From sequence record PQ666540: 64,000 bases of DNA; one strand, written 5' to 3'. The DNA comes from Shigella phage sb2. Made by a program: the position numbers and the translations under genes. The notes under the pieces are model-generated. The model had not been told where the DNA came from and did no database searches. It saw nothing but the letters and a program-made list of their open reading frames with translations. Shown piece by piece: positions 41-1,515 of the stretch (positions are counted from its first letter, which is position 1; every line of letters begins with the position of its first letter).

Positions 41-229
41 TTACTGCATGACTGTGATAACTGTCATGATAACACGTTGAATTCCGAACGCAAGAAGACC
101 TCCTGCTACGGCTGGAACAACACCTAAACCCGCCAGTAAAATGCTACCAGATACTAATGCAGCGCTTGTAATACCAATGAATGGACTAATTTGATTTCCT
201 CTAAATCTTTGGTGTATTCTGTAACTACA
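41..229 (-). CDS. small hydrophobic membrane peptide (ac/52.1-like); start codon unclear
   Basis: Open frame encoding ...GITSAALVSGSILLAGLGVVPAVAGGLLAFGIQRVIMTVITVMQ, stop TAA at 41-43; only ATG is 8 codons from the end, so start may be non-canonical. Confidence 0.3.
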   Translation of the reverse strand, partial: CSYRIHQRFRGNQISPFIGITSAALVSGSILLAGLGVVPAVAGGLLAFGIQRVIMTVITVMQ

Positions 230-294
230 TCAGTAGTTTTCCAATATTCGTTTTCTTCTTTTTTAGCTTTAGCTTCTTCATCAAGTTTCTTTGA

Positions 295-1515
295 TTAATC
301 GGAAGTCATATGAAAAATATTAATTACGACTAGTTTATCAACATAAGAATAATACATATCAATTTTAGAAAGTTCTTCGGTCAGTTCTTTGCGAGTTTTA
401 CCTTGTACAACAATTTCACCTGAAATTACTTTCTTAATGAAATGTGCCTTGGCAAAAGCTAAACGAAATGCTGATTCAGTTTCTTTGATTTTGTTATCAA
501 TTCGTTTTTGGACATAAGTTTTACGAACTTCAACGAAGTCTTTGATTAAATCAACTACATTATCGTAAACTTGCAGCTTTCCTTTCTCATTAATAACGGT
601 GATATTCTGGGAACGACGCTCAATCAACCCAAAGTCTTTCATGATTTTTGCGTGGCGTTCTTCTTCGTTATCGCTTAAGGAATATTCTTTACGGAATTTA
701 ACTTTGAAGCCAAAACCATGCTCACCACAAGCATCATCCCATGTAATGAAGCCTTTATCTTCAAGCGGGTCTAAGATTTTACTCACATAAGTTTCACGAT
801 CATACTTATACGGAATCTCAGTGATATTCATTTGAGTTCGTGAAGTAAACTTGTATGTTCCACGAATTTCATATTGACCGTCAATTTCAACGACTTCACC
901 GCGAAATTCTGGGAATTCTACCTTCGGTTTAGTTACTTTCTTTCCTTGAAGAGCTTGCAGTACAGCTTTCTTGACAGAAGAAACGCTATGAGGAAGAATG
1001 TAAGTTGCATAACCAGTTGCAATACCGGAAACACCGTTAAGAAGAACGGTAGGAATAATAGGCAAATAGAAAGCAGGCGGAATGTGTTCTTTATCTTGAT
1101 GTACCGGAGCATATTCAGTATCTTTATATACATTATAGAAATTTTTACTTACACGAGCAAAAATATAACGACTTGCCGCTGCTTTTTGAACGGTACGAGA
1201 ACCAAAGTTTCCTTGACCATCTAACAAAGGAAAGTTATTATTCCAAGTGTTAGCCATCAAAGCACCTGCGTCTTGCGCAGAGTTTTCACCATGATGATAT
1301 CCAAGGTCTGCTACACCACCTGCAATAGAAGCGAGTTTGTGAAACTTATCTTTATTTCCTCGTGCCAAATCAAGAGCTCGAGCAATAACAAATCGTTGAA
1401 CTGGCTTAAATCCATCAATCATATTTGGGATAGCACGATTTTCAACCGTGTACATAGCATAAGCCAATGCTTCATTATCAATGATACTTTTTAAATCGCG
1501 ATTATTCAGTTGCAT
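295..1515 (-). CDS. 52: DNA topoisomerase II medium subunit (gene 52), frame interrupted by in-frame TAA at 295-297
   Basis: 406-aa ORF with GyrA/ParC-like sequence matching T4 gp52; same frame stays open 46 more codons (SKKLDEEAKAKKEENEYW...) to TAG at 154-156. Confidence 0.85.
   Translation of the reverse strand: MQLNNRDLKSIIDNEALAYAMYTVENRAIPNMIDGFKPVQRFVIARALDLARGNKDKFHKLASIAGGVADLGYHHGENSAQDAGALMANTWNNNFPLLDGQGNFGSRTVQKAAASRYIFARVSKNFYNVYKDTEYAPVHQDKEHIPPAFYLPIIPTVLLNGVSGIATGYATYILPHSVSSVKKAVLQALQGKKVTKPKVEFPEFRGEVVEIDGQYEIRGTYKFTSRTQMNITEIPYKYDRETYVSKILDPLEDKGFITWDDACGEHGFGFKVKFRKEYSLSDNEEERHAKIMKDFGLIERRSQNITVINEKGKLQVYDNVVDLIKDFVEVRKTYVQKRIDNKIKETESAFRLAFAKAHFIKKVISGEIVVQGKTRKELTEELSKIDMYYSYVDKLVVINIFHMTSD

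Follow-up and report, generated by a model that had tools for sequence, protein, structure and literature searches.

A premature ochre codon in topoisomerase gene 52 of Shigella phage sb2 is very probably an error in the sequence record

Gene 52 of bacteriophage T4 is conditionally dispensable, and its mutants show a DNA-delay phenotype. Its product, gp52, the medium subunit of the topoisomerase II, comprises 442 aa (PDB 8yo3, 8ylu; Nat Commun 2024, PMC11461880). The window analysed here, a stretch of 64,000 nucleotides from the record of Shigella phage sb2 (PQ666540), contains an ORF which likewise displays PF00521 and the RY motif of T4 gp52, is 99% identical to Tequatrovirus gp52 over its 406 aa, and is embedded in a gene order (ac / 52.1 / 52 / motA.1 / motA) common to the window and the T4-type gp52 locus. 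It differs from T4 gp52 in that it stops at codon 407 and that the native stop is gone, both through private G>T changes which we judge to be errors.

The window is part of a T4-like (Tequatrovirus) phage genome. Its bases 1-1600 match approximately 490 phage records at 95-99% DNA identity, with Shigella phage sb1 as the best match (98.2%); over the gene 52 region (187..1515) the identity to approximately 490 Tequatrovirus records is 97-98%. Its minus strand carries ndd, ac-like small membrane genes, 52.1, gene 52 and motA.1 in this order. In T4T, pSs-1, TB37, EPIMAM01, EC121 and sb3, gene 52 is a CDS of 1329 nt with 442 codons. PF00521 (DNA_topoisoIV) is recognised in the window ORF with an E-value of 2.9e-71 (241 bits versus a cutoff of 31), and the alignment covers residues 27-404 of this truncated ORF and positions 1-392 of the 432 of the profile; in intact gp52 the domain reaches residue 429. 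The lost segment is located inside PF00521, in the coiled-coil part, and is not a dispensable tail. The translation of the ORF includes AAASRYIFARV, a motif of the A-A-x-R-Y type, the tyrosine of which we take to be the catalytic one by analogy with AAMRYTE of GyrA. Judging from this GyrA-like motif, the lost segment would be the returning helix of the gp52 coiled-coil. The gp52 ortholog of pSs-1 aligns end to end with the T4 gp52 structure chains 8yo3 and 8ylu.

On the minus strand, the ORF 295..1515 begins at the gene 52 start (1515) and encodes 406 aa with the C-terminus ...NIFHMTSD. The original prediction placed a TAA at 295-297 behind ...HMTSD, followed by 46 open codons up to a TAG at 154-156, and its coordinates and translation agree with ours, as does the length of 442 aa which it gave for T4 gp52. 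Beyond the TAA the gene 52 frame reads SKKLDEEAKAKKEENEYWKTTDVVTEYTKDLEEIKLVHSLVLQALH, 46 codons at 294..157. By base composition alone such a stretch would be open with a probability of approximately 0.024; it is open here because it is homologous to the conserved gp52 tail. Codon-by-codon comparison with the relatives reveals GAA>TAA at codon 407 and then the normal residues 408-442, and the 46 codons accordingly consist of 35 native tail codons (408-442) and 11 extra ones, the latter open because the G>T change at base 188 turns TGA into TTA. The incomplete C-terminus is hence attributable to a single base change, with the missing segment still encoded in frame at 190-294 (Table 1).

In the relatives the TGA of gene 52 overlaps the ATG of motA.1 as ATGA, as seen in the alignment, and the change at base 188 which destroys the gene 52 stop is the same one that turns the motA.1 ATG into ATT. 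A motA.1 CDS is annotated at the matching place in sb1, pSs-1, T4T, TB37 and EC121. An ORF caller would miss the 49-aa motA.1 of the window owing to its ATT start at 188-190 on the minus strand. Directly past the motA.1 stop, at window positions 9-35 of the same strand, a GC-rich hairpin, GGGAGAGCC-TC-GGCTCTCCC, is followed by a T run; this element is conserved in relatives and looks like an intrinsic terminator.

Table 1. Positions of the gene 52 and motA.1 features, the private changes at the 3' end of gene 52 and further nonsense codons in the window.
Feature	Position	Strand	Change, effect or basis
Gene 52, topoisomerase II medium subunit, full extent as in relatives	187..1515	-	442 codons and native stop position; homology, PF00521
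Premature TAA, codon 407 of gene 52	295..297	-	Private coding-strand G>T at base 297 (GAA>TAA)
In-frame remainder of gene 52, residues 408-442	190..294	-	Private changes A408S and A412D
TAG closing the open frame	154..156	-	Out of frame inside motA.1
Native gene 52 stop	187..189	-	TGA>TTA by private G>T at base 188; frame lengthened by 11 codons
motA.1 homolog, 49 aa, predicted periplasmic or membrane protein	41..190	-	ATG (188-190) reads ATT; annotated CDS in relatives
Private G:C>T:A change, gene 52	350	-	S389Y
Private G:C>T:A change, gene 52	326	-	G397V
Private G:C>T:A change, gene 52	322	-	M398I
Private G:C>T:A change, gene 52	297	-	E407 to stop
Private G:C>T:A change, gene 52	294	-	A408S
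Private G:C>T:A change, gene 52	281	-	A412D
Private G:C>T:A change, gene 52 and motA.1	188	-	Gene 52 stop to Leu; motA.1 ATG to ATT
Two nonsense codons in DNA polymerase gene 43, codons 203 and 197, six codons apart	31968-31970, 31986-31988	-	GAA>TAA, twice
Two nonsense codons in dCTPase gene 56, adjacent codons 151-152	21152-21157	-	GAA GAA to TAA TAA
Nonsense codon 10 of the pSs-1 gp120 homolog (128 aa, 'starvation-inducible transcriptional regulator')	60348-60350	-	GGA>TGA; plus-strand C>A

A gp52 of this length is without parallel in the homologs recovered. Our search of 5.8 billion proteins yielded 118 full-coverage hits with 52-99% identity, all of which have 433-465 aa and end at residues equivalent to 439-449 of the window; the 406-aa ORF as written lacks the complete coiled-coil and C-terminal segment present in them. 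No homolog ending near residue 406 was found among the 5.8 billion proteins, and the only shorter hits were two of 294 and 227 aa, the named representatives of which are labelled 'partial'. Residue 407 is Glu in each of the 118 aligned homologs, and in the tail beyond it L411, W425, T428 and D437 are invariant, while Y424, E433 and A415 are nearly so. Homologs that end naturally at ...HMTSD, which had been named as a possible objection to the truncation, are likewise missing from this set, in which all 118 full-length sequences have the Glu and end 33-43 residues later. Outside the damaged patch, gene 52 of the window differs from that of pSs-1 by 30 silent codons and one further amino-acid change (H230N, a C>A), which indicates that the underlying gene is under normal, strong purifying selection.

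The private changes are concentrated at the 3' end of the gene. When the gene 52 region was compared in a panel of nine genomes, bases 1-1600 contained eight changes private to the window, seven being coding-strand G>T or C>A changes; the private changes of the clean genomes T4T, EPIMAM01, TB37 and EC121 are mostly transitions. All seven changes in the patch between bases 188 and 350, a span of 163 nt, affect the protein itself or one of the signals for start and stop, and all are absent from sb1, sb3, sb4, pSs-1, T4T, EC121, TB37 and EPIMAM01. None of the 118 homologs has the resulting Val 397 or Ile 398. For bases 150-360 (211 nt) the best of 496 phage records reaches only 96.2% identity, which corresponds to the seven changes plus one natural T/C polymorphism. 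Base 176 was considered as an additional private change and rejected, as the alignment identifies it as a shared natural polymorphism. When the 53 window-private G:C>T:A changes were permuted over 50 kb, seven changes within 163 nt were obtained in none of 20,000 permutations, the maximum being six, reached once. Exact-pattern searches of IMG/VR returned no match for the TAA allele, and none for the wild-type pattern with the exact GAT codon of the window; a degenerate pattern was matched by zero contigs in its TAA version and by three in its GAA version, small numbers which show only that the allele is unseen elsewhere.

The same signature extends over the window. Changes were polarised against sb1 and pSs-1 over the first 50 kb, and as this three-way comparison alone overestimates private changes in these mosaic genomes, the inference for the whole window rests on the contrast of protein-changing and silent changes: 37 versus 12 for G:C>T:A and 41 versus 282 for transitions in the window (Fisher test, p = 3e-19), and 210 versus 44 and 144 versus 467, respectively, in sb1 (p = 7e-60). 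Approximately 76% of the G:C>T:A changes of the window are protein-altering, as expected of unselected random hits, compared with approximately 13% of its transitions, as in natural polymorphism. In addition to the 53 private G:C>T:A changes of the first 50 kb, the last 14 kb contain 15.

Five nonsense codons of the G:C>T:A class are GAA>TAA changes, one in gene 52 and two each in genes 43 and 56. The lesion of like kind which the original prediction mentioned for gene 43 was thereby recovered, and both gene 43 TAA codons are private among 501 phage records (best match 98.8%, with two mismatches in 161 nt). T4 genetics classes genes 43 and 56 as essential, and a plaque-forming isolate therefore cannot carry double ochre codons in them. 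The GGA>TGA codon at 60348-60350, which belongs to the G:C>T:A class as well, is private relative to pSs-1 and sb3. In-frame stops noted earlier in the window, such as that in gene 43, very likely share the cause of the one in gene 52.

Further irregularities were noted elsewhere in the window. Near the TAA pair of gene 56 we find G171V (G>T, 21095-21097) and G145S, and the best relative of the 161-nt region has only 95.0% identity; this region may be a second local error patch. The homolog of pSs-1 gp109 (nucleotidyltransferase) is put out of frame by one extra T at 56439, an insertion private to the window, and a private 7-base deletion near 63212 lies inside the homolog of vs (valyl-tRNA synthetase modifier), so that indel lesions exist beside the substitutions. 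At 49320-49382 on the minus strand, in the homolog of pSs-1 49298-49615, a CGA>TGA change affects codon 99 of a 105-aa ORF within a short patch of many amino-acid differences of mixed mutational type, which looks more like natural mosaic divergence near a gene end than like the G>T error class.

The sibling records show damage of the same kind. Phages sb1-sb4 (PQ666539-PQ666542) are four isolates from Kolkata lake water, for which PCR-amplified libraries made with a Twist enzymatic kit were sequenced on a NovaSeq 6000, quality trimmed, assembled de novo by SKESA and annotated by Prokka (PMC11993411). The window is co-linear from base 1 with sb1, sb3 and pSs-1, and with sb4 over the first 1.6 kb. 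In sb1 (PQ666539) gene 52 is annotated in three pieces, with stops at codons 53 and 345, and rIIA, dda, modB, 41, 43, 46 and nrdD are split as well; in sb4 (PQ666542) it is annotated in two pieces and broken at other sites; in sb3 it is intact, in a region identical to pSs-1. Over the 50 kb, private G:C>T:A changes are about five times more numerous in sb1 than in the window (273 versus 53). The sb1 sequence (PQ666539.1, 1-50000) is much more damaged than the window, with 25 of its 273 private G:C>T:A changes being nonsense, and sb4 (PQ666542.1, 1-3000) has private changes at invariant gp52 residues, e.g., W425R.

From these comparative patterns we infer that the TAA at 295-297 is very probably a mistake in the sequence as deposited or assembled and not a property of the phage, because the changes are private, of a G:C>T:A spectrum, clustered and without purifying selection, introduce nonsense codons into genes regarded as essential in T4 genetics, and have their like in the sibling records. 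What the original prediction read from the letters stands, namely a stop that is premature relative to the 442-aa gp52 of T4 and of all relatives examined, with a normal tail encoded beyond it; the phage with a truncated topoisomerase subunit which it implied is unsupported in view of the private, clustered and unselected G:C>T:A changes and the nonsense codons in genes 43 and 56. The consensus would consist of natural divergence, mostly silent transitions, and a second layer of private, unselected G:C>T:A substitutions, one patch of which, with seven substitutions at the 3' end of gene 52, would have generated the nonsense codon along with five missense changes, and would have abolished the gene 52 stop as well as the start of motA.1. 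The actual phage genome almost certainly has a gene 52 for an ordinary gp52 of 442 aa, followed by motA.1 with the ATGA overlap.

When template DNA containing 8-oxoguanine is copied in library PCR, the classical result is changes of the type G>T / C>A, and in two-colour Illumina chemistry such changes correspond to spurious green-channel signal. Oxidative damage of G in library preparation or PCR may thus have caused the errors, or alternatively spurious green-channel signal in the two-colour NovaSeq chemistry, with fixation in either case at sites of low usable depth. In view of the tight clusters (188-350; 21154 and 21157; 31970 and 31988), the consensus may have been set by individual poor reads or read pairs at very low depth. 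Among the trinucleotide contexts of the C>A changes none, the CCG reported in 8-oxoG artefacts included, was clearly enriched over background. However, SKESA is a conservative assembler and was combined with quality trimming, which makes so many consensus errors somewhat surprising.

Alternatively, the ochre codon is real, and the phage produces either a 406-aa gp52 without its last 36 residues or no functional gp52, and employs the host gyrase like the T4 DNA-delay mutants (39, 52, 60). The TAA is unambiguous in the sequence, and in T4 genetics gene 52 is not absolutely essential, so that a real nonsense codon in this gene alone would not be lethal by itself. We nevertheless regard this explanation as quite unlikely: the codon lies within a seven-change G:C>T:A cluster unmatched in 20,000 permutations, the same class of change creates double nonsense in genes 43 and 56 that is impossible in a plaque-forming phage, the pattern is unselected, the sibling records are broken at other sites, and E407 and the tail are invariant or conserved in 118 homologs. 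Its fuller form, in which the neighbouring changes are real too and the phage grows on Shigella via the host gyrase with a 406-aa gp52 devoid of the returning coiled-coil helix and with the motA.1 start lost, is decidedly improbable.

This lineage might also have a gene 52 that is decaying into a pseudogene or is naturally shorter, as the number of damaging 3' changes (S389Y, G397V, M398I, the stop, A408S, A412D and the stop loss) could be taken to indicate. We attach very little probability to this, as the 30 silent changes against the single H230N in the rest of the gene imply strong purifying selection, and the damage is confined to 163 nt and to one mutational type, unlike neutral decay. 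Moreover, the frame past the stop is still intact, homologs of approximately 406 aa were not found, and the truncated allele is present in neither IMG/VR (0 hits) nor any of 496 phage records. It is hardly credible that a suppressor tRNA or programmed recoding yields full-length gp52 through readthrough of the TAA or its decoding as Glu, although the codon replaced is GAA (Glu) in each of the five TAA lesions and the downstream frame is intact, given that GAA>TAA is the commonest G>T route to a stop in this AT-rich and GAA-rich genome, that TAA is the main genuine stop (it ends 38 of 66 long minus-strand ORFs, with motA.1, 52.1 and ndd among the genes ending in it), that a tRNA gene is absent from the 64-kb window (which does not extend to the usual T4 tRNA cluster), and that the destroyed native gene 52 stop would go unexplained.

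With an error in the record as the preferred reading, the TAA in gene 52 is of minor biological significance; a gp52 truncated in nature would be a mildly interesting viable topoisomerase variant, but the evidence points to error. If the allele were real, it would offer a natural test of the role of the conserved C-terminal segment in a viral type IIA topoisomerase. The observations matter more as a flag for data quality, as consensus G:C>T:A errors number from dozens to hundreds in the window, sb1 and sb4, and fragment conserved genes such as 52, 43, 56, rIIA, dda, 41, 46 and nrdD. Gene counts, pseudogene calls, anti-CRISPR or 'novel ORF' claims and evolutionary inference drawn from these three sequences demand caution, and conclusions on gene content from sb1 and sb4 are unreliable.

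The classical T4 gene 52 nonsense (DNA-delay) mutants share with the window an in-frame nonsense codon in this gene; those in collections are amber. They are single selected lesions in otherwise intact genomes, whereas the stop in the window is one of many unselected changes. Library and sequencing artefacts of the G>T / C>A type belong to the same substitution class as the changes in the window, which are private and unselected; such artefacts usually have a low allele fraction and rarely reach the consensus, whereas the changes in the window are found in it. In sb1 and sb4, gene 52 is broken and an excess of private, mostly protein-changing G:C>T:A changes is present, as in the window. Their gene 52 breaks are at other codons, and this difference from record to record fits random errors and not a shared biological trait.
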